Made by a program: the position numbers and the translations under genes
In this document: one piece after another, positions 9,504-43,527 of the stretch
Layout of the letters: each line of letters starts with the position of its first letter
Numbering within the stretch: position 1 is the first letter of the stretch
Assembly (NCBI GenBank): GCA_043820105.1
Contig: JBDREC010000103.1
Span: forward strand, 15,405-79,404
Reading direction: 5' to 3'
Source of the DNA: Pseudomonadota bacterium
GTDB taxonomy: Bacteria > Bdellovibrionota_F > JAHFAK01 > JBDREC01
DNA: 64,000 nt
The notes under the pieces: generated by a model
What the model was told of the DNA's origin: nothing
Databases searched by the model: none
Seen by the model: the letters and a program-made list of their open reading frames with translations, nothing else

Positions 9504-9754
9504 ATCTCCAACTCTACATAATTAACCTTAGCGATTGACTCTTTTAAGTCCGTATAATAATATTTTAGCAAATTTAGTGATAATAGGCAATAGGCAGAGA
9601 TCACAAAAATTAAATTTTTTCATATAATTAGAGCACGTTTTTGTTATGGCCCAAATAATGCAGTAATATCGGCCAGATATGCTGCTTGTGAAAAAATGAC
9701 ATAAAGCAAAAAAAAATAATTTTTTTCGTTTTTTTTTAATACGGAGGTTTTTTT

Positions 9755-11158
9755 ATGACAATTAGAACAAGATTTGCACCAAGTCCAACTGGTTTTTTGC
9801 ATATTGGTGGGGCTAGGACTGCACTTTATAGCTATTTATATGCAAAGGCAAATAAAGGTAAATTTGTATTAAGAATTGAGGATACAGATACCGAAAGGTC
9901 CACAAAGGAATATGAAGAAGATATTCTAGCTTCAATGAAATGGTTAGGTCTTGATTGGGATGAGGGACCATTTTATCAATCAAAAAATGTGGATATCTAT
10001 AAGGAAGCTATAGATAAACTTTTTGAAAACGGTATGTTATATAAATGCTATTGCTCAAGAGAAAGACTTGACAAGGTTCGTGAAGAGGCAATGAAAGCAG
10101 GAGGAAAACCCAAGTATGATGGGAAATGCCGTGAATTCAATGAACATAAAGACGAGCCATATGTTATTAGATTTAAAATGCCGCAAGTTGGTCAAGTCCT
10201 GGTAAATGATTTGATTAAAGGTGAAACAACTTTTGATAACAGTGAGTTAGATGATTTAATAATTGTTAGGCAAAATGGAGCTTATACTTATAATTTTGTA
10301 GTTGTTATTGATGATGTTGAAGAAAAGATTACTCACATTGTTCGAGGTGATGATCATTTAAATAATACTCCAAAACAATTACATATTTACAATGCATTAG
10401 GAGCAGAGCCTCCAATTTTTGCACATTTACCTATGATTTTAGGACCAGATAAACAAAGATTATCAAAAAGACATGGAGCAACAGCTGTATCTGCTTATAA
10501 AGATGCAGGTTATTTACCTCATGCAATGCTGAATTATCTGCTTCGTCTTGGATGGTCCCATGGAGATGATGAGATTTTTTCAAAAGATGAAATGGTCCAA
10601 AAATTTCTTAATGGAAATCTAGGTAAGTCATCTTCTATTTTTGATATGGATAAATTTACCTGGCTAAATGGTCATTATATTAGGCATGAAACTGATGAAA
10701 AGTTGGTTGAACTATTAGGTGAAAAGCACCCGCAAGTTATAGAAAATAAAAACGAAAAAGTGTTAGAACTTGTTCGTCTATGCAAGGAAAGAGCAAAGAC
10801 AATAAATGAATTATATGATTGGATTTCTTTTTATTTTAAAGACGAAATTGCATATGATGAAACAGCGAGTCAAAAGTTTTTAAAGGGAAATGTATTAGAA
10901 CCATTTACAGAATTATATGAAAAATTAAATTCTCTTGAAGATTTCAAAGAAGAAGCTGTGCAAAGTCTATTTATGGGTATTTTAGAAAAACACGAAATTA
11001 AACTTGTCAAACTTGCTCAACCAGTACGGGTAGCCCTAACTGGCAAAAGCTTTAGCCCAGGAATTTTTGAAGTCATTTCAATCCTCGGCAAAGACAGAAC
11101 AATTTCCCGCCTTGAAAAGGGACTTGAATTTATTAAAGAGCGAGTTGTTGCTAGCTAG
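9755..11158 (+). CDS. gltX: Glutamyl-tRNA synthetase
   Basis: HIGH-type motif (PSPTGFLHIGGARTA) and KMSKS-type motif (RLSKRHG); 467 aa. Confidence 0.85.
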   Translation: MTIRTRFAPSPTGFLHIGGARTALYSYLYAKANKGKFVLRIEDTDTERSTKEYEEDILASMKWLGLDWDEGPFYQSKNVDIYKEAIDKLFENGMLYKCYCSRERLDKVREEAMKAGGKPKYDGKCREFNEHKDEPYVIRFKMPQVGQVLVNDLIKGETTFDNSELDDLIIVRQNGAYTYNFVVVIDDVEEKITHIVRGDDHLNNTPKQLHIYNALGAEPPIFAHLPMILGPDKQRLSKRHGATAVSAYKDAGYLPHAMLNYLLRLGWSHGDDEIFSKDEMVQKFLNGNLGKSSSIFDMDKFTWLNGHYIRHETDEKLVELLGEKHPQVIENKNEKVLELVRLCKERAKTINELYDWISFYFKDEIAYDETASQKFLKGNVLEPFTELYEKLNSLEDFKEEAVQSLFMGILEKHEIKLVKLAQPVRVALTGKSFSPGIFEVISILGKDRTISRLEKGLEFIKERVVAS

Positions 11159-30740: not shown

Positions 30741-32369
30741 ATGAAGATTATACCTCGGAAAAAACTGTTTGCATCTCTTTTACTTTTATTTCTTTTTTCA
30801 TGTCAGCCAACAGAGGATTTGAAGATTGAAGACGGAAGCAATAATGAAAATCAGTCAAATATTTCTGAAGAAGATCTAGAGCTGATAGCTGATCTTAGAA
30901 TTAATTTAAGCGCTCAAATAGATTATGAATCAGTTTTAAATGATATAGGTGATCGCAGTTATATTATTACAAGAACTGATATTATTACCAGGACAGATAT
31001 CATAACAAGAACTGACATGAATTTTGAGCAAGATTTCAACGTATCAATTATTCCTAAAAGTGTTATTTCAAAGAAAAGTTCACTTTCCGAGATTACAGAT
31101 CCTTCTGAGCTATATATGCTTATTACATTAGAGCAGGCGTCTTCTACAGAAACATTAAAATCAATAAAGAATTTAAATGAAACAAAAATGGTTTATGGAT
31201 ATGCTTTCACCGATGAAGATGGAAGTTTTTTATTAAATGCCCCTTTAATTGACCTGGACCTTGAACTAAGATCCTATTTTTTAACAGAAACTAATGAGCT
31301 GATCTTTTATAGTGTTATAAAGTCCTTGGATGATGAGGGTACGATTAACTTTGCATCTTTAATACTTGATGAAGTTAATGAAAGTGAGATTGCTGATGAA
31401 AAAGAAGGATTTTTCTTAGCCAATGCAAGTATTGACATTAATTTGGGTCGATTTAATGCTGTTGCTGGAGAATTAACTGGAGAATTTCAAACTTTTTCTG
31501 AACTTATTGCTGAAGCTATTTTAGAAGAAATTGAAACCTATACAGCTGGTGGTGGCGATTTAGGTGATGGAGATGGTGACGGTGACGGCGACGGCGATGG
31601 AGATGGCGACGGCGATGGTGACGGCGATGGTGACGGCGACGAGGAAGAAAATCCATTTTCAGAAATGGGCCTTTATTTTGCCTTTAATGAGGGAAGTGGA
31701 GATTCCTTCTCATCTGATGCTTCAGTCACTCTAGCAATGGAAGAGGATATGTGGGAAACAAATCCTGCGAATGTCAAAGCTGGGAATTCCTCTCTCTATC
31801 TCCCAAATCAACCAAATAGGGAATGTGTAATTGCTGAACAGCTACCAGAAATTACAAATCAGTTAACTATTATGGCGTGGGTAAAGGCAGAGGCAGGGTT
31901 TTTGAATGAAAACCTAGGAAAACCTCTCGTTATAGTAAGTAAATATGATGATGATTACTATGAAAACAGTTCATTAAATCTATACCTAAGTGGTACAAAT
32001 ACAAGGTGGGAGCTTGTTTTTGAACTTTTCAGAGATGATTCTTCAATGGAAATTGGACAGAACTCTGTGAGTGCTAATTTGCAACCTGATATCTGGTACC
32101 ATATTGCTGCAGTATATGATAAGGGGTATATTTATCTTTATTTGGATGGTATTTTGTTAACAGATATCGATCCAGAAGAACGCGGTGATGGTAGTTTGTC
32201 AAATATCCTTGATAGCACAGATGTAAATCTTGTAATTGGGGCAGAGCAAAATGGTGAAAATGAATTAGGTAAAATATATCGTTCGAATTTTGAAGGACTA
32301 ATGGATGAAGTATTTATATTAAATCAGGCTTTATCAGAAAGCCAGATTTATGATTATCTTAATCCTTAA
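30741..32369 (+). CDS. Secreted lipoprotein with IITRTD x3 repeat, long (GD)n tract and C-terminal LamG/ConA-like lectin domain
   Basis: Lipobox (LFSCQ); GDGDGD...GD tract encoded at 31563-31640; C-terminal LTIMAWVKAE ... IWYHIAAVYD ... LYLDG ... EGLMDEVFILNQAL resembles laminin-G/pentraxin-like fold. Confidence 0.55.
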   Translation: MKIIPRKKLFASLLLLFLFSCQPTEDLKIEDGSNNENQSNISEEDLELIADLRINLSAQIDYESVLNDIGDRSYIITRTDIITRTDIITRTDMNFEQDFNVSIIPKSVISKKSSLSEITDPSELYMLITLEQASSTETLKSIKNLNETKMVYGYAFTDEDGSFLLNAPLIDLDLELRSYFLTETNELIFYSVIKSLDDEGTINFASLILDEVNESEIADEKEGFFLANASIDINLGRFNAVAGELTGEFQTFSELIAEAILEEIETYTAGGGDLGDGDGDGDGDGDGDGDGDGDGDGDGDEEENPFSEMGLYFAFNEGSGDSFSSDASVTLAMEEDMWETNPANVKAGNSSLYLPNQPNRECVIAEQLPEITNQLTIMAWVKAEAGFLNENLGKPLVIVSKYDDDYYENSSLNLYLSGTNTRWELVFELFRDDSSMEIGQNSVSANLQPDIWYHIAAVYDKGYIYLYLDGILLTDIDPEERGDGSLSNILDSTDVNLVIGAEQNGENELGKIYRSNFEGLMDEVFILNQALSESQIYDYLNP

Positions 32370-32420: not shown

Positions 32421-33863
32421 TTAATTAGTTCCCTTCCTGAAATTCACTTTTTACGATCAATTTAAAGAGCAATTTCACAACTTTTGTATCTAATGAAATT
32501 TTCATACATGAATCGATCAACAAATGACTCTAAGAAGTGTTTTAATCAAAAAGCAGACGAACCCCGCCTTTATTTTAAAGCGTTTTCGATAAATCAGACT
32601 ATATATAATTGCTGTGCTAATTTAACAGATGTCTCGCTATCATCAGCAAATTAGCCGAGATAACCGATGACCATGCAAAACTTTTGAACGATTCAAAACC
32701 TGACAAGTTACACCTATCCAAACTAAAGCATCTCTTCAAAAAGGAGATCATTCCTTCTATGCCTGCACGAAAATCGCGCAGTCTTTTGTAGACCCAGGTG
32801 CTTTTTACCATATCGATTATTTTGATCCCTCTCTTACGGCTGAACATTACATCTTTTACTCCAAGCTCTTTGATTTCTTTTACATTATCCTTTGAAGCAA
32901 AGCCTCCATCCATCGCGACTTGCCTTGGCAATCGATTAAAAACATCTTCTTGCCTTTCAACCATTTTTACTGCTAATGAGGTATCAGAAGGATTGCCTTT
33001 TTCTATTTTTAAATCTGTAATTAATCCTGAAACTCCACTTGTAAGTGCTATTTTATGACCAAATTCAGTTTCTCGTTTTTTCTCTGATCTAGTGTTTAGG
33101 ATGCCCATTCTGCGCCTTTTTGCTCGTTTTGTATGGTCTATGAAATTAAATCCATTTACATCTAGCTTATCTTTTGCCTTCATCATAATTCTTGATAAAA
33201 CTCTAACACAATCATATAGCAATGATGAATCATAAGGTTTATGAATGTTTGTTTCCGTTTCAGTACAGTCAATTCTTACCTTCCTGCCTTTCTCAATTCC
33301 TTTTTCTACTGCAATTTTGATTAAGATTATATTTATTGACTCTAATGTAGTTGGTTTTAATTTTTTTATAGCTCGTTGAAGTGCAGACTTTTTCGGAGGA
33401 CAATCAGCAAAACCAATTCTACAAAAGTTGCGATAAGTTCTTGAATCAGCTAAATGAAAGGCCAATTGTTCATAGCTAAAGTTATTCATTTGCTTTATAA
33501 TGAGCAAACGAATTGCAAGCTCAGCACTAACCCCATTACGACCTATCTTGGGTTTCTTCCTTCCCGCAATAAGATCAGCATGAACAAGCTCCATGATCTT
33601 TTTTGATTCGTCTAATAGTTCTGATATTTTTTCCAATTCTTTTGCATGTTGATGTTCAAAATTTGTCTCGACAAGTGCTTGTTGATGTTTTATGATTTCT
33701 CTCATCAGGGCTTTTCCTCCTTCAATATTGCGGTGTTCCGCAATATTGTTTGAATTTTAGATTATATTTGGAGGATACAAAAGCCCTGATTATTTTTCAA
33801 GAATATTGTCTCTTTTGCCTGATTTTTCTGCTATTTAGAATTTCGGGATGGGAACTATTTAGA
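32421..33863. mobile_element. IS element of the IS4/IS5 superfamily, approx 1.44 kb, with imperfect 25-bp terminal inverted repeats
   Basis: Left end TTAATTAGTTCCCTTCCTGAAATTC (32421-32445) matches the reverse complement of the right end 33838-33863 at about 21/25 positions; single DDE-type transposase ORF inside. Confidence 0.6.
32617..33705 (-). CDS. DDE transposase (IS4/IS5 superfamily)
   Basis: C-terminal RAGIEGMISFLKR ... signature and DCTETETNIHKPYDSSLL region typical of IS4/IS5-type transposases; lies between terminal inverted repeats. Confidence 0.7.
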   Translation of the reverse strand: MREIIKHQQALVETNFEHQHAKELEKISELLDESKKIMELVHADLIAGRKKPKIGRNGVSAELAIRLLIIKQMNNFSYEQLAFHLADSRTYRNFCRIGFADCPPKKSALQRAIKKLKPTTLESINIILIKIAVEKGIEKGRKVRIDCTETETNIHKPYDSSLLYDCVRVLSRIMMKAKDKLDVNGFNFIDHTKRAKRRRMGILNTRSEKKRETEFGHKIALTSGVSGLITDLKIEKGNPSDTSLAVKMVERQEDVFNRLPRQVAMDGGFASKDNVKEIKELGVKDVMFSRKRGIKIIDMVKSTWVYKRLRDFRAGIEGMISFLKRCFSLDRCNLSGFESFKSFAWSSVISANLLMIARHLLN

Positions 33864-34084: not shown

Positions 34085-34276
34085 TTGTGCATCGCCAGGG
34101 AAGATATTATTGTTGAGGTTGATTCATCAGAGCCCCTTATGAACAGTGAAGAATTTACTACAAAATTTATAACCGGATTAGACAACTTATGTGACTATTT
34201 TGATGAACTGATAATATTTGGAGAAGCTCTTAAATCAGACGATATTTCAAAAATCTATGATTTCTATACAAAATAA
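34085..34276 (+). CDS. Small acidic ORF of uncertain reality, possibly remnant of a gene disrupted by the IS
   Basis: ORF-track start is TTG; internal ATG lacks an RBS; 20 nt upstream of the next gene. Confidence 0.2.
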   Translation: MCIAREDIIVEVDSSEPLMNSEEFTTKFITGLDNLCDYFDELIIFGEALKSDDISKIYDFYTK

Positions 34277-34296: not shown

Positions 34297-35403
34297 ATGG
34301 ACGGGAAGGTTTTCTATCTTAGACTCTATGATGTTGGAGGCACTATTGATATAAGAAAACTAAAAGAAAGAGTTAAGGACTCAACAAAGAAATTAAAGCT
34401 TTCTATTCAATCTTTTTCTTCAAATTATTTTGATTTGCCTTCATATTTTGTTATGGAAACTTCGTGTGTAAATTTGGAAACTTCATTTGGGTGTTTTGAA
34501 ATTGAACCGGAAATTAAAATATTTCCAATAGGGGTTGTTTCCTTAAGTATCTGCGTTGAATTTAATGGGATATCATTTGAGAAGTTGAATGAATACCATG
34601 AATTAAAAATAATTGATAATGGCGAGGAAAAAGAGCTTCAAACTTTTTTTCGAAAACATTTTGATGATGTCATGCAAAAGATAAAGTTTGCCTTGACCGA
34701 GATATATGAAATTGATGTAGCACCTGAAATTTACACCGTTTTTTGCGTACATAATACTGACGGAATATCTGTTGATGATTTATTAAGCACTCATAGAAAA
34801 AAACTAGCTGGTTTGATTACAAATGATAAAACTTATAAAAATTTGGGTGAAAAACAGGTCGATGATATCCTGAACTGGTGGTTTTCTTATGATAAAAACG
34901 ACTTAACAGTACTTGATTGGGATGCAGCTTTTATTGTTGATTCAAAAAAAGATTTTGATGCCATGCTTTTTGTTTTTGAAATCAGCAATATTATGCTTCT
35001 TGAGCTTAAAACTTATGATATATACTTAAATAAAATTTTAGAAAAAGCATATAGAGATATAGACAAATTTTATGGTAAAAAATTGAAATTTTCTATTCCC
35101 AGTATAACTTTAAAAGAAATTATAAAAACAAGGATGGATTTTTTAAAAATGACAGATCAGCTGACAAATACTACGAAATTTTTAGGAGAATGGTTTTTTG
35201 CCAAAGTTTATAATGCATGTACTGATAAATTTCATTTAAATGACTGGGAAAAAAGTATAAATAAAAAGCTTGCAACATTGAATGAACTCTATACTGTTCT
35301 TTCAGATTCGATGAGAAACAGGGCAGCCTTAGTACTTGAATCAAGTATAGTTCTATTGTTCATTGTTGATGTAATAATTCTTGTTATTCCATTAATTTTC
35401 TAA
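34297..35403 (+). CDS. Hypothetical protein with C-terminal membrane anchor, first gene of the radical-SAM cluster
   Basis: GAGG RBS 7 nt upstream; C-terminal hydrophobic helix LVLESSIVLLFIVDVIILVIPLIF; no family recognised. Confidence 0.5.
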   Translation: MDGKVFYLRLYDVGGTIDIRKLKERVKDSTKKLKLSIQSFSSNYFDLPSYFVMETSCVNLETSFGCFEIEPEIKIFPIGVVSLSICVEFNGISFEKLNEYHELKIIDNGEEKELQTFFRKHFDDVMQKIKFALTEIYEIDVAPEIYTVFCVHNTDGISVDDLLSTHRKKLAGLITNDKTYKNLGEKQVDDILNWWFSYDKNDLTVLDWDAAFIVDSKKDFDAMLFVFEISNIMLLELKTYDIYLNKILEKAYRDIDKFYGKKLKFSIPSITLKEIIKTRMDFLKMTDQLTNTTKFLGEWFFAKVYNACTDKFHLNDWEKSINKKLATLNELYTVLSDSMRNRAALVLESSIVLLFIVDVIILVIPLIF

Positions 35404-35592
35404 AATAATTCTTATAATGTGCACTACTTTCCTGCTTCCACTGATAAGCTTCAAATATCACAAAGTAATTTTATGCACCGCTTTTGACGGGGTACTTTTA
35501 GATCGAAATCTTTAACTTGACTAGTATTTAAATTAAATCAATAGAATGGATTATTGCAAAAAACTAAAAGTTATTAAACCTAGGTTATTAAA

Positions 35593-37218
35593 ATGAATAA
35601 AAAAAAATTAATATACAGTTCGATAAAAGCCATTAAAATTAGTGAACCTAGGATTGAACATTTACAAAAAACAATTGAAAACTTGCTTGGCATAGTTGAA
35701 TTTGAATATAAAGGAAAACCCGTCAAAATAGATGCTTTTAGATTAAAAAAGCTTAAAACATGGGCTAATAATCATTGTCATTATTCTTCTTTTATTAATT
35801 TTGACCTTGCTCGTGAATGTAATATTAACTGTGTTTTTTGTGTTCATCACGGTGACCCGAAAGATCTAATCTTTGAAAATGGCAAGTGTCATATTTCAGA
35901 AGAAGAGTTTTATACTAGATTAAAATATTACAATCCAACCTTACAAACTGGTTTGTTTATACCTTTATATAGGTGGAGAGAAGCTCTTCTTAGTGAAAAA
36001 TCGATAAAATATTTTAAAAAAATTAGAGAAAAAACTAATGGATTATTGACATTCTGGTCAAATGGATCCGTTTTAACGGAAAAAGTTATTAAAAAATTAA
36101 GTAAACTTAAACCAATTTTTTTAATGCTATCGTTAAACAATGCAAGAGAAGAATATCGCTTCAAATTTATGAATGATAAAAATCCTAAAATAGCCATAGA
36201 TTCTCTTAAACTTCTAGATAAACATCAGATAGCCTATGCTGTTAGTATTTTAAAATGGCCAGGTGTTGATATTGAAAGTCTTGAAGAAACTGTTTTTTAC
36301 GTATCAAAACACAATCCAATTTTCATTAGATTTATACTGCCGGGTTTTACAAAATATTCTAACCTTCCTAAAAAACACCAATTTGAAAACATTGAAGATG
36401 AATGGAAATGTATTATTAAATTGGCCAATAAACTGAGAAATAAAATATCCTGTCCTTTGCTTACTGTGCCGATGGTGTATGAAGATGATTTCTATCATAA
36501 GAAGATAGATAAATTAATAGTAGGGGGGGTAGTGAAAAACGCCCCTGCTTACAATTTAATAAAAAACAAAGACATTATCCTTGGAATTAACAATATTACA
36601 GTTGGAGGAAGACAAGAGGGAGTTGATTATTTAACAAGTCTTTATGAATATAAAAAACTCAAAAAAATTAAGCTGAAAGTCTTAAGACAAAAACAAATAA
36701 TTTATGTTACATTAACAAAGCATCCATATAGTTTTCCTTATACTAGAGAATATGAAGAAATTTATTCATTTCCCTTTGGTATGATTTTTGCCAATGGGTT
36801 TGATGATATGACAATCCAGGGAATAGCCAAAATTATTGAAGAAAACAAAGCAAAAAATGTAGTTATATTTGTAAGTGATTTAATAAAACCATCCTTCTTA
36901 AAAACAATTAAAAGGTTAAAATTAAAACAATATTTAAGGGATAATTTTAAAGCAAAGTTTAGAGTAGAAACAGCTGAGAATGATTTTTTTGGCAAAGCAA
37001 TCTTACCAGGAAGTCTACTTGTTTGCGATGATTACATAAAAAGAATTAAAACTTTATTAAAGGAAAATATAAAGATAGATCTTATTATAATTCCCTCCTC
37101 CATATTTTTTTCTTCAATGGGCTGGAAGAGAGATTTAAAGGGAGATATATTTAAAAAAATAGAAAAAGAATGCAAAATAAAAGTAGAAATAATTGATTGC
37201 GAGATAATGAATAATTAA
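35593..37218 (+). CDS. Radical SAM enzyme with internal PDZ-like domain
   Basis: CxxxCxxC (CNINCVFC) near residue 77; PDZ-like segment LIVGGVVKNAPAYNLIKNKDIILGINNITVGG; 541 aa. Confidence 0.6.
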   Translation: MNKKKLIYSSIKAIKISEPRIEHLQKTIENLLGIVEFEYKGKPVKIDAFRLKKLKTWANNHCHYSSFINFDLARECNINCVFCVHHGDPKDLIFENGKCHISEEEFYTRLKYYNPTLQTGLFIPLYRWREALLSEKSIKYFKKIREKTNGLLTFWSNGSVLTEKVIKKLSKLKPIFLMLSLNNAREEYRFKFMNDKNPKIAIDSLKLLDKHQIAYAVSILKWPGVDIESLEETVFYVSKHNPIFIRFILPGFTKYSNLPKKHQFENIEDEWKCIIKLANKLRNKISCPLLTVPMVYEDDFYHKKIDKLIVGGVVKNAPAYNLIKNKDIILGINNITVGGRQEGVDYLTSLYEYKKLKKIKLKVLRQKQIIYVTLTKHPYSFPYTREYEEIYSFPFGMIFANGFDDMTIQGIAKIIEENKAKNVVIFVSDLIKPSFLKTIKRLKLKQYLRDNFKAKFRVETAENDFFGKAILPGSLLVCDDYIKRIKTLLKENIKIDLIIIPSSIFFSSMGWKRDLKGDIFKKIEKECKIKVEIIDCEIMNN

Positions 37219-37235
37219 AAGAATTAAGGATATAT

Positions 37236-37439
37236 ATGTCAAATCCAAATCTTTCAAATACTAAAGACTTCATTTATAGATACAAAATAAATACCAATAA
37301 ACCAGAAATGGATCTTGTTTCATTTTATAAACAGCAAATTAAAGACTTATTAGAGATTGTTGATCTATATTCTAGCAATAAGAAAATTAACTTAAATGGA
37401 TTTTCTTTTATAAATAAAAATAAAATTCACAAACTCTAA
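37236..37439 (+). CDS. Small protein (67 aa) between the two radical SAM genes; candidate precursor peptide or accessory factor
   Basis: AAGGA RBS 8 nt upstream; no Cys; C-terminus NLNGFSFINKNKIHKL rich in aromatic/Asn/Lys residues. Confidence 0.4.
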   Translation: MSNPNLSNTKDFIYRYKINTNKPEMDLVSFYKQQIKDLLEIVDLYSSNKKINLNGFSFINKNKIHKL

Positions 37440-37464
37440 TTAATATTATTTTAAAGAAAAAAAT

Positions 37465-38265
37465 ATGAATTTAAGTTTCAAGTTAACAAATAAATGCAAT
37501 TATAAGTGTAAGTACTGCTATTTAGCTCCTACTAAAAAAACAACTAATTTAAAATTAGAACATTTTGATAAGTTTCTTCAGTTCGCTGATCCAAAAAAAG
37601 ATTTAATAACCCTGTCAGGGGGTGAACCAACTTTGCACCCTGAAATAGATAAGATCTTAAGGCGCCTTGAGCATCACCAGATACGAATCTGTACAAATGG
37701 CACTTATCTTCAAAATATAATCCAAATGTTGGTACCTGAACATACAACTATTGATCTAAGTTTCCATTATTTTAACCGCCAAATTAAAAATGCTATTTCT
37801 CTTCTCATAAAATATAAGATAGAATATTTTATTAATATTGTCATACATGATGCAACTAAAAATAGGTTAAAAGAAATTATTGAACATACAAAACCTACAA
37901 AAAATTATCATCTTCTACACCCAACTGCAACAGATTCAAACACTATAGATGAAATCCAAGAAAATCAGTGGCGAACTTTAGTAAAAACAGCTAAAATTAT
38001 TTTTGATAAATATAATAAAAAAGTTTTTTATGAAAAATCATATAAAGATAAAACAGATAACTATTTTAGAAAAAAAATATGCTCTGGAACATATTCCAAT
38101 TTTATTGATGAGTATGGAAGAATATATCCATGTTCCTTCGGACCTGAATATGGTTTACCCTCTCTTAAGAAAACAGGTTCAATAAATTTTCATTCGAATT
38201 GTCCTTATTTGAAAAGTTCTATAGATAAAACTAAGACTTGCCCTTTTTTTATGGTGTTGCTGTAA
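37465..38265 (+). CDS. Radical SAM enzyme with C-terminal Cys-rich auxiliary-cluster (SPASM/twitch-like) region
   Basis: CxxxCxxC (CNYKCKYC) at residues 11-18; C-terminal Cys at CSGT, YPCSF, SNCPY, KTCPF. Confidence 0.65.
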   Translation: MNLSFKLTNKCNYKCKYCYLAPTKKTTNLKLEHFDKFLQFADPKKDLITLSGGEPTLHPEIDKILRRLEHHQIRICTNGTYLQNIIQMLVPEHTTIDLSFHYFNRQIKNAISLLIKYKIEYFINIVIHDATKNRLKEIIEHTKPTKNYHLLHPTATDSNTIDEIQENQWRTLVKTAKIIFDKYNKKVFYEKSYKDKTDNYFRKKICSGTYSNFIDEYGRIYPCSFGPEYGLPSLKKTGSINFHSNCPYLKSSIDKTKTCPFFMVLL

Positions 38266-38631: not shown

Positions 38632-39612
38632 TTGAAATTTATCAATATGGAAAATATAAGCAAACTATTTATAGAAGCCTTAAAGTTAAATAGTCTTGAA
38701 TTGCTTCGCCAAATACCTAAATCAGATTTACACAACCATGGCTTGCTTGGAGGAAGGCTAGATGAATATAAGAAATGGCAAAGATGTAATATTCCAAAAC
38801 CTCCTAATCGATTTTATAGTTTTAAAGCTTTTACAGACTATGTTGATAATGAAATTGCAATTAATTTCAAAGGGTGTAATTTACAGGACCTAAAACAGAA
38901 AATTACTTTTCTTATTGAATCAGCCTTTAGAGAAGCAAGAAAAGATAGCATTAAAATATTTGATATGAGTGTTGATGTATCTCTGCAAAATCTCTTTCAT
39001 GGAAATATAAAAGAGTTAATAAAATTTTTAAGTAATATTCATAAAAAAATAGCACCTCAAATTATTTATCGCCCATGTCTTGGAATAATTCGAACTACTA
39101 AACTTGAAGAATTTGAAAAACTTGTGTTTTCTTGTATTGAATCAGGTTTTTTTAAGTCAATAGATCTTTATGGAGATGAATATTATGGAAATATTAAGTC
39201 ATTTAGAAAAATATTTCAACGAGCAAAACAAGCAGGATTGAAATTAAAAATGCATGCAGGGGAATTTCGAGATGCAAGTTATGTAATAAAATGTATTGAA
39301 ACACTCGAAATTGATGAGATTCAACATGGCATATCAACTGCAAAATCCTTAGAAGCAATGAAATATCTCTATAGAAACAAAATTCGGTTAAATATCTGTC
39401 CTACAAGTAACATTAAGTTAAATAGAATTAAAAATTATGCTATTCATCCAATTCGTATTTTATATGATAATGGTGTGAATGTGACAATTAATTCAGATGA
39501 TATTATGATCTTCAATCAATGTGTTTCTGAAGAATACTTGAATCTTTTTAATGCTGATTTATTTAGCGCAAATGAACTGGATAATATTCGTATAACTGGA
39601 TTAGATCATTGA
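38632..39612 (+). CDS. Adenosine/AMP deaminase-like amidohydrolase
   Basis: PKSDLHNHGLLGG (metal-binding HxH near N-terminus) and VTINSDD near C-terminus resemble the adenosine deaminase family. Confidence 0.5.
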   Translation: MKFINMENISKLFIEALKLNSLELLRQIPKSDLHNHGLLGGRLDEYKKWQRCNIPKPPNRFYSFKAFTDYVDNEIAINFKGCNLQDLKQKITFLIESAFREARKDSIKIFDMSVDVSLQNLFHGNIKELIKFLSNIHKKIAPQIIYRPCLGIIRTTKLEEFEKLVFSCIESGFFKSIDLYGDEYYGNIKSFRKIFQRAKQAGLKLKMHAGEFRDASYVIKCIETLEIDEIQHGISTAKSLEAMKYLYRNKIRLNICPTSNIKLNRIKNYAIHPIRILYDNGVNVTINSDDIMIFNQCVSEEYLNLFNADLFSANELDNIRITGLDH

Positions 39613-39667: not shown

Positions 39668-40192
39668 TCAGCTAAGACACGTAATGTGCTCTGGCGCTAC
39701 TTTCCCAAGTGTCTTAACAAAAGTAACTTTTGAGTCATTTAAGTCATAAAAATCTTTTAATATACTTTCTTGGATATAGCCATTTTTTAAGTAAAATTGC
39801 CTGGTAGACTCATATTGAGGCTTAGAAGAAGTTTCAGCATATATATTTTTTCCGCCAAAACTGGCTATTTTTTGTTCTGTTTCTTTTAATAAATTTGACC
39901 CTATTTTTTGTCCTCTACAATCATTAGAAATTGCAATCCAATATAAATCATAACTACTTTTTGTACAAGCAATGTGCCCGAAAGAAGTGAAACCAACTGT
40001 TTTATTGTTATATTCTGAAAAGATAAAATTATATCCGCTTTTAATTCCTTTATCTAATCTTTCTTTAACAATCTCAACTGCTGTATCAATTTCATAATCA
40101 TGAAAAAAGCCAGTTGACGCAGTGATGAGTTTTACATTTTCGAGATCTTTTACTGATACTTCTTCTCGAAAATTTAATGATTTGTTTTCCAT
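39668..40192 (-). CDS. GNAT family N-acetyltransferase
   Basis: Acetyl-CoA-binding motif region CRGQKIGSNLL; last gene of the KamA/ATP-grasp operon. Confidence 0.65.
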   Translation of the reverse strand: MENKSLNFREEVSVKDLENVKLITASTGFFHDYEIDTAVEIVKERLDKGIKSGYNFIFSEYNNKTVGFTSFGHIACTKSSYDLYWIAISNDCRGQKIGSNLLKETEQKIASFGGKNIYAETSSKPQYESTRQFYLKNGYIQESILKDFYDLNDSKVTFVKTLGKVAPEHITCLS

Positions 40193-40222
40193 ATAATCCT
40201 TAAATAAATTAGTTAATAATAT

Positions 40223-41212
40223 TTAAATAGAATCCGAGATGATACTTTTTACAATTTCAAAAATGTCAATTCCACTTTCTGCGGCGGCTGCTACAAATCC
40301 AGCATCTGGAGAAAGACATGGATTAATATTGATTTCAAGTACAAATGGATTATTGTTTTTATCAATTCTAAAATCAACCCTTGCATAACCCATAACATCA
40401 AAAACATTCCAACACTTTACAGATATATTTCTAAGTTTTTTTAATAAGGTATAATCTTTTTTCTCAAATTTAAAATTCCGCTTTGTATTGATATATTCAA
40501 AGGACTGTTCATCCCATTTTGCTTTATAAGCAATAATTTTAGGTTTATTTTCAGGAAAATTAATAAATTGAATTTCAGCACACGGCAAAACTGTTGGTGT
40601 TTTCTTTTGATTTCCAAGCAAAGCGATGTTAAATTCTCTGCCATCAATATATGATTCAATAAAATATTCATTTAGAATTATTTTATTTTTGTTCTTGTAC
40701 TTTATTAAGTCATTTTTTGTATAAAAAACAGACTTATCATTTAAGCCTTTTGATGCATGATCATAAATAGATTTTAATATATATGGGGGTTCAAATGAAA
40801 TATTATCATTTGATAAATCACTTAACAAAACCGAATTAGGAGTAGAAACATTATTTAGGCGTAATAATTTTTTTAATAATAATTTGTTTGTTGTTAAATT
40901 AAAGGTAAAAGCTTTTGAGCCTGTATATTTTATTCCCATTGAATCAAGCAATGCAGGAATGATAGCAGCAAGATTATCTTTATTTGCAATTGACTCAACC
41001 AAATTAAAAACAAATGATATTTTATTTTCTTTTAATTTTATTAATAGCTTTTCTAGGTTAAGGTTTACAGGAATTTCAATTGGATGATAAGCAAGCTTGC
41101 TTAAAGCATTTTTAATATATTTAACTTGAGTATATGTATCAAGATCATCTAAGGATGATTGAGAAGATAATTTGCCATATAATATTCCAATATTTTTCAT
41201 GTCTTGTTTCAT
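40223..41212 (-). CDS. ATP-grasp ligase, D-Ala-D-Ala ligase-like
   Basis: ATP-grasp C-terminal motifs (YIDGREFNIALLG; YARVDFRIDKNNNPFVLEININPCLS); 4-nt overlap with upstream ATP-grasp gene. Confidence 0.65.
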   Translation of the reverse strand: MKQDMKNIGILYGKLSSQSSLDDLDTYTQVKYIKNALSKLAYHPIEIPVNLNLEKLLIKLKENKISFVFNLVESIANKDNLAAIIPALLDSMGIKYTGSKAFTFNLTTNKLLLKKLLRLNNVSTPNSVLLSDLSNDNISFEPPYILKSIYDHASKGLNDKSVFYTKNDLIKYKNKNKIILNEYFIESYIDGREFNIALLGNQKKTPTVLPCAEIQFINFPENKPKIIAYKAKWDEQSFEYINTKRNFKFEKKDYTLLKKLRNISVKCWNVFDVMGYARVDFRIDKNNNPFVLEININPCLSPDAGFVAAAAESGIDIFEIVKSIISDSI

Positions 41213-42183
41213 TTAATTCTTTTTTTTGCAAAATAAATTATTTTACTGATTAATTCTTCATAAGAAATATTTACTTTTTTACAAAGTATTATAAGATCTC
41301 CGACAACAGGATGTATGCCAGCCAAGGGATTTACTTCTAAAAAATTTGGTCTGCCATATTTATCACTTTTAATGTCTATTCTTCCAGCATCCCTACAACC
41401 TAAAACTTTCCAGGCATTTAAAGCAAGATTCATTGCCAGCCTTGCTTCTTCATCATTAACAAGATTATATTCGACTCTATCTAAATAGTTTTCTTTATTT
41501 GAATAAGTATAAAGCTCTTTTTCCGCGTTTTGATTTAGCAATATTTCTAATGTACCAATTGCTTCTGCCTCATCGCCTGTTCCTATGATTCCAACTGTAA
41601 ATTCTCTGCCTGGTAAAAAATCTTCAGCTAAAACAGGTTGCGAGAAATTTTTTAGTAAATTTTCTGCCATTGATTTTAGCTGATCAATATTTTCAACTTT
41701 TGAAAGATGAGATATCCCTTTTCCAGTGCCTTCTGCAAGAGGTTTAACAATAATAGGGAAGTTTAAATTAAAATTATCTATATCCTTAATATCTTCAATA
41801 ATAAAAAAATCAGGTGTTAATAATTTTGCATCTCTTACAATTCTTTTAGTCATTGCCTTATGAAGGGTTAATGATAAAACCAAAGGATCAGAAAATGTAT
41901 AGGGGATATTATAAGCATCAAGGATTGCAGGAACTTGAGCTTCCCTTCCAAAACCCTTAACACCTTCTGCAATATTAAAGACCAGATCCCATTTTTCTTC
42001 CTTGCATAGTCTTGAAACAAGGTTTTTTATGTGTCCAATTCTTGTAGTTTGATGCCCTAAACTTTTTAGTGTAGTGTCTATTGCATCAATAGTTGCTAGT
42101 TGATCAAATTCCGCAACTTCTTCTTTTCCATAACCCATTTCTAGATAATCATCTTTTAGATCATATGTAATTCCAATATGCAT
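41209..42183 (-). CDS. ATP-grasp ligase, D-Ala-D-Ala ligase-like
   Basis: GREFTVGIIGTGDEAEAIGTLEIL and GRIDIKSDKYGRPNFLEVNPLAG match Ddl-family ATP-grasp patterns. Confidence 0.65.
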   Translation of the reverse strand: MHIGITYDLKDDYLEMGYGKEEVAEFDQLATIDAIDTTLKSLGHQTTRIGHIKNLVSRLCKEEKWDLVFNIAEGVKGFGREAQVPAILDAYNIPYTFSDPLVLSLTLHKAMTKRIVRDAKLLTPDFFIIEDIKDIDNFNLNFPIIVKPLAEGTGKGISHLSKVENIDQLKSMAENLLKNFSQPVLAEDFLPGREFTVGIIGTGDEAEAIGTLEILLNQNAEKELYTYSNKENYLDRVEYNLVNDEEARLAMNLALNAWKVLGCRDAGRIDIKSDKYGRPNFLEVNPLAGIHPVVGDLIILCKKVNISYEELISKIIYFAKKRIK

Positions 42184-42219
42184 TGGAAACTCCTTTTTAA
42201 AATATTTATTTTAATAAAA

Positions 42220-43527
42220 TTATTTTGATTTAGCTTTTTTGTTTAAGGGATATTTATAAAGTAATCCTTTATAATTTTTAAGGATGATATCATTTTCATT
42301 GATACTATCAACATAATTGGGAAGAAGTGGTATTTTACCACCACCATCAGGCGCATCAATAACAAATGTTGGAATAGCATACCCACTTGTATGCCCTCGT
42401 AAGCCATTTATAATTTCAAGACCTTTTTCTATGGGGGTTCTGAAATGAGCTGAACCCACAATTGGATCACATTGATATAGATAATAGGGTCTAACACGAA
42501 TTTTTAGTAAATTATGAAAAAGTGTTTTCATTGTTTTAATATTATCATTAATCCCTGCAAGCAAAACTGTTTGACTTCCAAGAGGGATACCATAATCAGC
42601 TAATCTGTTGCATGCTTGACTAACTTCAGGTGTTATTTCATTCGGGTGAGTGAAATGAATACTTAAATATAAAGGTTGATATTTTTTAAGTATCCTTAAT
42701 AAATTTATTGTAATACGCTGAGGTAATACTACAGGTGCCTTGGTTCCTATGCGAATTATCTCAACATGAGGAATTTGTCTGAGTCTACTGAGTAAATATT
42801 CAATTTTATTATCTACAACAATGAGCGGATCTCCTCCTGACAACAATACATCTCTGATATTTTTATTTTGTTCTATATAGTTTAAAGCTTTTTCCCAATA
42901 ATTAACTTTAAAACGATATTTATCATTTGGTCTCATGATTCGAGATCGAGTACAATATCTGCAATTTGAGGTGCAAAATTTTGTTACTAAAAGTAAAACC
43001 CTATCAGGATATCTATGAACAATTCCAGGAACTGGACTGTCTTTATCTTCGCCAAGGGGATCAAAGTTTTCTTCTGGAGAATGTATGAGTTCTTTAGTTA
43101 TAGGAATTACAGTTTTTTTGATGTAACTATTTTTTGCCAGGCTTGCATAATAGGGGGTCATTGTAACTAAAAACTTATTTTCAAACAATGATATAGCTTT
43201 TTTTTCATCTTCACTTAATTTTATTATTTTTTCTATTTTTGAAAGACCGTGCACTCTGTTTTTCAATTGCCATTGCCATGAATTCCAATCATTATTACTG
43301 GCTTCAGGATAATATTTATTTCTAAATTCATCTGATGTTGAACTTATTGTAAAAAATTCATTTGCTTTTGAATCCCTCTTGTCTAAATAATTTATAGATA
43401 GGATACCATTCTGTAATGAATTTGTTTCTAAAGAATTGGAATTTATTAGATTACTAGCAAGTAAATTATTCTCAATAGAAAGTGGCGGAGGCTCTCCATC
43501 TTCTAAACCGATTATTTTATTTATCAT
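42220..43527 (-). CDS. Lysine 2,3-aminomutase-family radical SAM enzyme (KamA/AblA/EpmB-like) with approx 80-aa N-terminal extension
   Basis: WQWQLKNRV ... TPYYASL N-terminal signature; CxxxCxxC as CTSNCRYCTRS; extension rich in Asn/Ser/Leu. Confidence 0.75.
   Translation of the reverse strand: MINKIIGLEDGEPPPLSIENNLLASNLINSNSLETNSLQNGILSINYLDKRDSKANEFFTISSTSDEFRNKYYPEASNNDWNSWQWQLKNRVHGLSKIEKIIKLSEDEKKAISLFENKFLVTMTPYYASLAKNSYIKKTVIPITKELIHSPEENFDPLGEDKDSPVPGIVHRYPDRVLLLVTKFCTSNCRYCTRSRIMRPNDKYRFKVNYWEKALNYIEQNKNIRDVLLSGGDPLIVVDNKIEYLLSRLRQIPHVEIIRIGTKAPVVLPQRITINLLRILKKYQPLYLSIHFTHPNEITPEVSQACNRLADYGIPLGSQTVLLAGINDNIKTMKTLFHNLLKIRVRPYYLYQCDPIVGSAHFRTPIEKGLEIINGLRGHTSGYAIPTFVIDAPDGGGKIPLLPNYVDSINENDIILKNYKGLLYKYPLNKKAKSK

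Follow-up and report, generated by a model that had tools for sequence, protein, structure and literature searches.

DUF512 is a cobalamin-binding domain (Wang et al. 2024; PMC11659888) of about 6,000 radical S-adenosylmethionine (SAM) enzymes, whose reactions are unknown and in which the PDZ domain's function is unclear (PMC11659888, PMC13331322). The four DUF512 proteins tested so far all bind cobalamin, form methylcobalamin from SAM and yield 5'-deoxyadenosine, with substrates unknown (PMC11659888, PMC13331322), and a December 2025 review poses the reactions of DUF512 enzymes as an open question (PMC13331322). In csDUF512 from C. sporogenes, the PDZ domain comes first, at residues 1-80, and completes a truncated beta3-alpha4 barrel, while a DDD motif ligates the unique iron (PMC11659888). 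The enzyme Mmp10 C-methylates a protein arginine by cobalamin/radical SAM chemistry (PMC11659888, PMC13331322). Here we describe a locus in a 64,000-nt stretch of a Pseudomonadota bacterium assembly (contig JBDREC010000103.1; this stretch is the window, and all coordinates are positions within it), in which a 541-aa radical SAM enzyme, here called ENZ, is encoded next to a 67-aa protein, here called S. We find that S and ENZ form an obligate two-component module and that ENZ is probably related to the DUF512 and Mmp10 enzymes in class. The literature searched (PDZ with radical SAM and precursor peptide; DUF512) contained no description of this ENZ subfamily, of its N-terminal D domain or of S.

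Four co-directional open reading frames (ORFs), which an earlier note on this DNA had placed beside an insertion sequence (IS) element, were confirmed on the forward strand at 34297-35403, 35593-37218, 37236-37439 and 37465-38265. They encode proteins of 368, 541, 67 and 266 aa (records MFH1729756-59, all singletons), and the gaps between them are 189 nt (368-aa gene to ENZ), 17 nt (ENZ to S) and 25 nt (S to the 266-aa gene). The element adjoining them upstream carries an ISNCY-family transposase gene. The earlier account of the products also holds: the 368-aa protein has a hydrophobic C-terminal stretch, AALVLESSIVLLFIVDVIILVIPLIF, in keeping with a membrane anchor; the 541-aa enzyme has a PDZ-like domain (PDZ_2, residues 306-374) after its Fe-S motif (C76/C80/C83); the 67-aa product, read from its sequence, has zero Cys; and the 266-aa radical SAM protein joins a CNYKCKYC motif to a Cys-rich C-terminus, CSGTYSNFIDEYGRIYPC followed by two more Cys. 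The GC content is even, at ~27-31% throughout the cluster and its flanks. The supported unit comprises three of the four ORFs, namely ENZ, S and the 266-aa radical SAM gene, and the 368-aa gene lies outside it.

The S gene (37236..37439, + strand) is preceded by an AAGGA Shine-Dalgarno-like site 6 nt before its ATG. A hidden Markov model (HMM) of 60 other members of its unnamed family, from which the window's S was excluded, scores this S at 31.4 bits when run against the window's 329 ORFs (E 2.9e-9), and BLASTP matches it to a small ORF beside P0002, a 36%-identical enzyme (E 5e-11). By these sequence comparisons, S is not a chance ORF. In a profile search the family grew to at least 82 clusters. 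They derive from Chloroflexi/Dehalococcoidia, Tectomicrobia, Thermodesulfobacteriota, Clostridiales and the metagenome-assembled genome (MAG) studied here, and every one of them carries the annotation hypothetical. S has no match in Pfam, NCBIfam or PDB profiles, and Foldseek with a low-confidence S model (predicted local distance difference test score, pLDDT, 64.5) returned nothing.

To this family we could add genomic context. Loci came from exact-protein look-ups, from GTDB genomes, where a scan turned up Clostridiales bacterium PH28_bin88 and a Desulfonatronospira MAG, and from metagenomes, in which scanning yielded 20 loci. The small gene, whose co-occurrence with the radical SAM genes elsewhere had been put forward as a check, proved conserved and tightly linked to ENZ: in all assessable loci, representing ~26 distinct enzymes from several phyla, S either adjoins ENZ or forms an in-frame fusion with its N-terminus. 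This coupling was seen in the window and in L001, L006, L009, L010, L011-L030, L032, L034, L035 and L037-L039, with gaps of 0-50 nt; the count leaves out L031, which ends 97 nt after ENZ, L025, which starts inside ENZ, and the P0039 locus. Separate S homologues are 67-99 aa long and lie immediately up- or downstream of ENZ, that of L035 being divergent (12-13 bits). Fusions of S to ENZ, 600-640 aa in length, occur in L011-L014, L016, L017, L024, L028 and L029, and many database representatives are fused as well. The coupled enzymes are merely 29-44% identical across the deep branches of the family. We conclude that S and ENZ constitute an obligate two-component module, strictly coupled in the genome and repeatedly joined into one chain.

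ENZ (35593..37218, +) has the domain order D, radical SAM, PDZ, DUF512, as read from Pfam, phmmer and the AlphaFold2 (AF2) model of a relative. The D domain (residues ~14-57; 35632..35763, +), delimited by hhalign, the S HMM and BLASTP, has an EPRIE motif together with a helix and a set of three strands that ends in KIDAFRLK..W. The CxxxCxxC [4Fe-4S]/SAM motif that follows (C76/C80/C83; 35818..35841, +) is invariant in alignments of 40 and of 66 relatives and lies in a Radical_SAM match (PF04055, residues 74-235, 33 bits, cut-off 29.5), the only curated family threshold that ENZ reaches; no NCBIfam model fits. The PDZ domain (residues 306-374; 36508..36714, +) follows the radical SAM core and precedes the cobalamin domain, with a sub-cut-off PDZ_2 score of 21.3 bits, and the PDZ_6 model exceeds its cut-off in the relatives P0002 (35.1 bits) and P0108 (40.8 bits). 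The predicted DUF512-type cobalamin-binding domain (residues 381-534; 36733..37194, +) scores 22.3 bits with PF04459 against a cut-off of 25; with the same model, P0002 reaches 25.2 bits and P0003 45.1 bits. An exhaustive HMMER search yielded an ENZ family of 498 cluster representatives with full-length matches, 178 of them at E<1e-30; a word-indexed search with ENZ returned just three proteins.

The cobalamin assignment draws on both sequence and a structural model. With phmmer against the PDB, ENZ matches Pyrococcus pfDUF512 (9cg2) in the radical SAM and the cobalamin regions alike. Its residues 455-526 align to residues 267-336 of the 9cg2 chain, in the cobalamin domain, and its L475 aligns with chain residue 287, the predicted lower-axial Leu position, which equals L286 of the published description (PMC11659888) provided that the 358-residue chain has one extra N-terminal residue. 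The family consensus around this Leu is GDLLVV. The AF2 model of the natural fusion P0018 (pLDDT 90.9, predicted template modelling score 0.89) finds as its top structural matches 9cg2 (7e-13), csDUF512 (9cg1; 9e-12) and Mmp10 (7qbs; 2e-7), followed by SuiB and SkfB, and its PDZ domain matches RseP PDZ structures; P0018 is 33% identical to the window's ENZ, and the fold match belongs to this relative rather than to ENZ itself. Taken together, the alignments and the model indicate that ENZ is probably a class-2 cobalamin-dependent radical SAM enzyme of the DUF512/Mmp10 type. Methylation is therefore a likelier reaction than crosslinking.

Two family variants extend this architecture. P0161 (1053 aa) combines an ENZ-type radical SAM core and PDZ domain with a classical PF02310 B12-binding domain (52 bits), which replaces or supplements the DUF512 part, and may have arisen by fusion to a class-1 B12-radical SAM gene next to it. 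Family representatives 700-750 aa in length are extended at the N-terminus by ~200 aa without a Pfam domain.

The closest described proteins to ENZ are pfDUF512, the best match by sequence, and csDUF512 and pfDUF512 together, the best matches by structure to the P0018 model; a DUF512 domain, predicted in ENZ, is common to all of them and a PDZ domain is present in csDUF512 too. The PDZ domain of csDUF512 is N-terminal, whereas that of ENZ, at residues 306-374, comes after the radical SAM core and ahead of the cobalamin domain. ENZ has no DDD motif of the csDUF512 type; at residues 103-105, a similar distance beyond the last Cys, it carries an acidic EEE run whose E105 is conserved across the family. 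Given the PDZ position and the missing DDD motif, ENZ falls outside the csDUF512 type. The earlier note had described a PDZ-first arrangement for DUF512-type proteins and set the order in ENZ against it; the contrast is true with respect to csDUF512, but the order is not unique, as P0003, a 450-aa DUF512 homologue 27% identical to ENZ, shows the same succession of radical SAM, PDZ and DUF512. P0003 lies among housekeeping genes (tsaD-like genes, groES), lacks a D domain and has no S at its locus. Neither csDUF512 nor pfDUF512 has a D domain, and no partner protein has been reported for them (PMC11659888, PMC13331322).

Mmp10, the methyl-coenzyme M reductase arginine C-methyltransferase, resembles the predicted architecture of ENZ in having a radical SAM core, a C-terminal four-stranded cobalamin domain and a lower-axial Leu (PMC11659888, PMC13331322). 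Its substrate is a protein or peptide, as we propose for ENZ, and its structure 7qbs is matched by the P0018 model. In the structural alignment the two are 12% identical, and Mmp10, unlike the ENZ family, lacks PDZ and D domains as well as a dedicated small partner gene, and the protein it modifies is a large enzyme.

The conservation of S points to two distinct parts. Across 61 sequences, the near-invariant positions form an N-terminal motif and a C-terminal block that ends in an invariant D-G-F. The motif, DFIYRYKI in the window (37266..37289, +; consensus [DE]-Y-x-F-R-Y-K-L), is the proposed modification site on the grounds of its conservation and predicted disorder; the Y, F, R, Y and L of the consensus are each at least 90% conserved. 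In the AF2 model of the window's S it has no secondary structure (pLDDT 47-59), and in the P0018 fusion model it is likewise predicted to be disordered, with pLDDT below 50 at residues 1-3 and 9-18 and a block mean of 49 over residues 1-20. The second part is a putative docking domain (residues ~24-66; 37305..37433, +; AF2 and hhalign) made of a helix and then strands, with an invariant G55-F56. The window model places the helix at 27-41 and strands at 44-46, 49-51, 57-60 and 63-66; the folded S block of the P0018 model is a helix plus three or four strands (pLDDT 84-95), and a disordered linker of ~25 residues comes after it. Fusions join S to D by a low-complexity linker of 20-90 residues.

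The folded part of S is related to the enzyme itself. A profile of S aligned to a profile of D with an hhalign probability of 97.3% (E 2.4e-11), placing S residues 24-59 on ENZ residues 17-52; the HMM of 60 S proteins also matches ENZ residues 14-52, and BLASTP against L1_79 gives E 5e-5. On these alignments, the folded C-terminal block of S and the D domain of ENZ are paralogous and share the same topology. The N-terminal motif of S has no counterpart in D by hhalign and is an extra N-terminal element relative to it. An alignment of the S 'FRYKL' with the ENZ 'EPRIE' was ruled out by hhalign, in which EPRIE pairs with the start of the S helix, 'DPLLEM'. A second D-like copy that lacks the motif is present in the enzymes P0002/L001, L010 and P0016/L034, and a separate, motif-bearing S is still found with them. 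With a conserved disordered motif attached to a folded domain homologous to D, S thus resembles a docking domain that carries a flexible payload. This anatomy does not favour the suggestion, made for a Cys-free product, of a crosslink in the S C-terminus: that half of S is the folded D paralogue, the conserved disordered motif is N-terminal, and the probable DUF512/Mmp10 class of the enzyme favours methylation. The idea that the PDZ domain of ENZ binds a conserved S C-terminus was also dropped as a general mechanism; conservation of the C-terminus is confined to one clade (EER[SP]L), and in the fusions it is not a free end.

The genomic settings of the module are of two kinds. ENZ sequences split into deep branches, 29-44% identical (the window, L001, L006, L009, L010, L031, L032 and L034), and one large clade, 48-92% identical; L035-L039 were placed with the deep branches by their similar gene context, outside the sequence comparison. 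Deep-branch neighbourhoods are rich in radical SAM genes and resemble those of peptides that are ribosomally synthesized and then post-translationally modified (RiPPs). B12-radical SAM genes lie near ENZ in L001, L006, L032 and L039, and L006 also has a homologue of the 266-aa enzyme and an RlmN-like methylase. Homologues of the YydG-like peptide epimerase, each after a small aroma-sacti-like ORF, are found in L010, L034 and L039. A radical SAM-SPASM gene is accompanied by PqqD in L035 and L038, with ATP-binding cassette (ABC) transporter genes in the former and a major facilitator superfamily (MFS) gene in the latter, and by an MFS gene in L037; the gene order ENZ-S-radical SAM(-PqqD) of L035/L036 and L038 is the same as the ENZ-S-radical SAM order of the window. 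Beside ENZ in L031 is a 70-aa ORF (144-356) that matches NF038399, of the Os1348-family nitrile hydratase leader peptide (NHLP) clan, at 40.9 bits against a cut-off of 40, and L009 has a 79-aa NHLP-like ORF (9658-9897) between S and ENZ. The window was searched for an NHLP-like ORF as an alternative precursor, and none was found. A peptide or protein modification pathway is a reasonable reading, given that the deep-branch clusters contain radical SAM enzymes that modify peptides as well as PqqD, transporters and precursors of NHLP type.

Some further details of these neighbourhoods may be recorded. The epimerase cassettes occupy 2-1261 in L010, 333-1857 in L034 and 2469-4153 in L039, directly upstream of ENZ or of its B12-radical SAM neighbours. 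Their small ORF has a C-terminal part weakly similar to the 'aroma-sacti cluster domain' (E 0.003), and the epimerase homologues are 347-353 aa long, with sub-cut-off matches to TIGR04078 (E 6e-35 in L034, 6e-28 in L010). An ORF beside ENZ in L032 (1207-1413) looks NHLP-like by eye only.

The resemblance to RiPP clusters also raises the reading that the locus makes a classical secreted RiPP antibiotic, with S as a precursor that is cleaved and exported and the 368-aa protein in immunity or export. A radical-SAM-rich cluster beside an IS element would suit it, as would the ABC and MFS transporters of relatives and the M23 peptidase found nearby in L038. S is also, as expected of a RiPP precursor gene, a short gene adjacent to and conserved with modifying enzymes. 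In the window, however, the arrangement of leader and core with a RiPP recognition element (RRE) and a protease or exporter was not found: S has a folded C-terminal domain and no linear leader, and no protease, transporter or RRE is encoded, while PqqD and ABC/MFS genes do occur among the relatives L035, L037 and L038. Conservation of the module does not extend to the 368-aa protein, and the S-ENZ fusions and the acyl-CoA-embedded clade described below favour an intracellular role. We consider a secreted antibiotic distinctly improbable.

The large clade (L011-L028), probably of Chloroflexi-type organisms, has S and ENZ separate or fused in a different setting. The module is inserted tightly between genes for an enoyl-CoA hydratase and a B12 acyl-CoA mutase. 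The neighbouring genes, named by eye from their sequences and typical motifs, encode besides these the mutase's small subunit, MmgE/PrpD and a family III CoA-transferase, and further carboxyltransferase, biotin-carrier and decarboxylase subunits, electron-transfer flavoprotein and tripartite ATP-independent periplasmic (TRAP) transporters. Examples of modules embedded among acyl-CoA genes are those at 4503-6356 in L012 and 9671-11587 in L021. The peptide-modification pathway proposed in the earlier note is therefore upheld in part: the linkage of S to ENZ and the RiPP-like contexts of the deep branches speak for it, and the S-ENZ fusions and the acyl-CoA operon clade are atypical of RiPP systems.

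Our preferred reading, which we hold tentatively and at a little less than an even chance, is that S is the dedicated substrate of ENZ, docking through its D-like domain so that its N-terminal motif is modified, probably by C-methylation. In such a scheme, the helix-plus-strands domain at the S C-terminus would dock on ENZ, most likely against the paralogous D domain and possibly with the assistance of the PDZ domain. Docking would bring the flexible motif (DFIYRYKI) into the cleft between the cluster and cobalamin. The 5'-deoxyadenosyl radical would then take a hydrogen atom, and a methyl group would pass from methylcobalamin to an unactivated carbon in one of the motif's residues. The window's 266-aa twitch-like enzyme would add a second modification to S, and the product would be a modified small protein or peptide. 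We infer all three elements of this scheme: S as substrate, methylation as the reaction and the identity of the modified residue.

Several findings weigh against S as the substrate. The motif Arg is replaced by His in several S members, so that an Mmp10-like Arg methylation is unlikely as a general rule. The window's ENZ is a divergent family member, with K468 and S474 (nt 36994-36996 and 37012-37014) at positions that are G and D in at least 90% of 40 relatives, and both lie in a loop aligned to the cobalamin-binding NxFFGGxIxxGDLL segment of DUF512 proteins. No PqqD/RRE, protease or exporter was found in the window with Pfam and NCBIfam, and the acyl-CoA operons of the large clade have no protease, transporter or other RiPP gene. 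A substrate fused to its enzyme implies either a single turnover or modification in trans. The remaining points are at the same time arguments for the main rival, that S is a stoichiometric subunit or adaptor, similar to PqqD/RRE, which pairs with D and either completes ENZ or recruits some other substrate. Fusion of a partner to an enzyme, here often at the ENZ N-terminus, and paralogy between the partner and an enzyme domain are more typical of subunits and adaptors than of substrates. Competing precursor-like ORFs stand beside ENZ in L031 and L009 (Os1348/NHLP-clan) and in L010, L034 and L039 (aroma-sacti-like). In the large clade, S-ENZ lies 0-60 nt from enoyl-CoA hydratase (L012, L013, L018-L027) and, at some loci, from acyl-CoA mutase genes. 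The other substrate would be an NHLP-type or different precursor in the radical-SAM-rich clusters, and a protein or an acyl-CoA-related small molecule in the Chloroflexi-type clade.

Against an adaptor role, no other candidate substrate recurs across all the loci, and the window lacks an NHLP-like ORF. The most conserved part of S is the N-terminal motif, predicted to be disordered, rather than the docking domain, and enzymes that already carry an extra D-like domain nonetheless keep a separate, motif-bearing S. In addition, L035 and L038 encode a PqqD of their own, so the RRE role is already taken there. We regard the adaptor as a serious explanation but, on balance, an unlikely one, and retain S as the substrate as our working reading.

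Known peptide-modifying systems provide partial parallels to S and ENZ. PqqD and RRE domains are small proteins, free or fused to the N-terminus of a radical SAM enzyme, that mediate substrate recognition. S is like them in being small and free or fused to the enzyme N-terminus. It differs in having no Pfam PqqD match and in a predicted fold of a helix with three or four strands instead of a winged helix, and the two coexist in L035 and L038. Borosins (OphMA-type) are autocatalytic class I SAM peptide N-methyltransferases with a C-terminal core, in which the substrate is fused to the enzyme or encoded by an adjacent gene. They share the fused-or-split pattern with S-ENZ, whereas ENZ is of radical SAM/cobalamin type and the candidate core of S is N-terminal. 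Proteusin/NHLP and bottromycin pathways use class-1 B12-radical SAM C-methyltransferases with an N-terminal B12 domain, and the bottromycin precursor consists of an N-terminal core and a follower. Proteusin/NHLP clusters likewise group radical SAM and B12-radical SAM enzymes around a small precursor, and NHLP-clan ORFs are present in L031 and L009. The bottromycin follower peptide recalls the layout of S, with its N-terminal core and C-terminal recognition part. Nevertheless, S is unlike NHLP leaders and the bottromycin precursor in sequence, and its recognition part would be folded and paralogous to one of the enzyme's own domains.

The third member of the unit is the 266-aa radical SAM protein (37465..38265, +; Radical_SAM 56.8 bits), which has CNYKCKYC at residues 11-18 and a twitch/SPASM-like four-Cys tail. 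The tail CSGTYSNFIDEYGRIYPC reads Cx13Gx4C with two more Cys after it and fits the Cx9-15Gx4C signature of SPASM/twitch domains; Pfam SPASM (PF13186) gave no match at E<=0.01. Its sole clear homologue is L006_269, from the S-ENZ cluster of L006 (26% identity over 233 aa, E 4e-23). The first two tail Cys align between these proteins, and the later pair match by eye only. Otherwise, the homologue search gave only generic N-terminal radical SAM matches. On this sequence evidence, the 266-aa protein is probably a second modifying or tailoring enzyme.

The same protein figures in a reading of the locus as an accident of neighbourhood, in which ENZ is a housekeeping DUF512 protein, the 266-aa protein a viperin-like nucleotide-modifying (antiviral) enzyme acting with the adjacent adenosine deaminase, and the 67-aa ORF without a role. 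The best NCBIfam and PADLOC matches of the 266-aa protein are indeed viperin and pVip. An adenosine deaminase gene with a partial match to CARF-ADA (38632-39612) is next in line, and P0003, 27% identical to ENZ, is located among housekeeping genes. Yet the viperin score (NF038283, 57.4 bits) falls far short of the cut-off (180) with a match confined to the N-terminal part, and the pVip match (69.7 bits, E 6e-20) is generic, because the pVip model gives 45-60 bits to ordinary radical SAM-SPASM maturases and YydG-like enzymes as well. We therefore dropped the 266-aa protein as a viperin or defence enzyme. Viperins are not known to have a four-Cys twitch-like tail such as that of the 266-aa protein. 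Moreover, S is conserved and always coupled to ENZ, the sole real homologue of the 266-aa protein sits in another S-ENZ cluster, and P0003 has neither D in its chain nor S at its locus. A chance assembly of this kind is highly improbable.

The 368-aa gene (34297..35403, +) encodes a hypothetical protein anchored, judging from its hydrophobic C-terminus AALVLESSIVLLFIVDVIILVIPLIF, at its C-terminal end. Neither Pfam nor NCBIfam offered a family for the protein, even with the threshold relaxed to E<=10, and no homologue was found in any related locus. A match to Cas2b at 16.8 bits was spurious. In contrast to its listing as a cluster member in the earlier note, the 368-aa gene is, by these sequence searches, not tied to the S-ENZ unit.

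The ISNCY-family transposase gene upstream (32617-33705, - strand) scores 346 bits with NCBIfam against a cut-off of 325, and a hairpin with an 11-bp stem (33723-33748) lies just outside it. Transposase genes of the IS21, Mu, IS110 and DDE types flank the S-ENZ clusters of L006/L007, L009, L035 and L037. The recurrence of transposases beside the window's cluster and several others suggests that S-ENZ clusters are located on mobile islands. A 63-aa ORF (34085-34276, +) just upstream of the 368-aa gene ends in ...FDELIIFGEALKSDDISKIYDFYTK, which resembles the C-terminus ...LMDEVFILNQALSESQIYDYLNP of a Laminin_G_3 protein (30741-32369, +), and this similarity suggests that it may be a paralogue remnant severed by IS insertion. 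The Laminin_G_3 protein contains a long (GD)n repeat, which accounts for a GC spike at 31500-32000. A promoter and terminator scan of the cluster DNA, which is AT-rich, gave 28 sites against 32 expected.

Downstream, the adenosine deaminase gene (38632-39612, +, TTG start) scores 321 bits with NF006856, whose cut-off is 510, and matches the deaminase part of the PADLOC CARF-ADA model at 74 bits; no CARF domain was seen. A four-gene cassette on the reverse strand (39668-43527), 1.4 kb past the cluster, encodes a KamA-like 2,3-aminomutase, two Ddl-like ATP-grasp ligases and a GNAT acetyltransferase. The cassette recurs in the same order in the unrelated L011 (17145-20961), 5.5 kb downstream of a fused S-ENZ gene, with identities of 48/38/30/30%; it is present in only 2 of 23 compared loci, so the link may be due to chance.

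These results suggest an undescribed partner family, S, together with the D domain and an unusual recognition architecture, on a B12 radical SAM system that would modify proteins or peptides. S is a first concrete substrate candidate for the DUF512 enzyme class and, if it is the substrate, would give the class its first bacterial substrate and reaction. A domain common to enzyme and partner would also be a possible new route of substrate recognition. S-ENZ has a dual context, in RiPP-like islands and in acyl-CoA operons, and the tie of the module to anaerobic acyl-CoA metabolism in Chloroflexi-type organisms is a puzzling link. One conjecture, which we offer as a rather improbable one, is that pairing of the paralogous domains, the S dock and the ENZ D, replaces leader and RRE, and that the modified motif, aromatic and basic in character, serves by analogy with PQQ or mycofactocin as a protein- or peptide-derived cofactor or activator for anaerobic acyl-CoA metabolism. 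If true, this would explain why the module is found both in RiPP-like islands and in operons of enoyl-CoA hydratase and B12 mutase, and why S and ENZ are so frequently fused.

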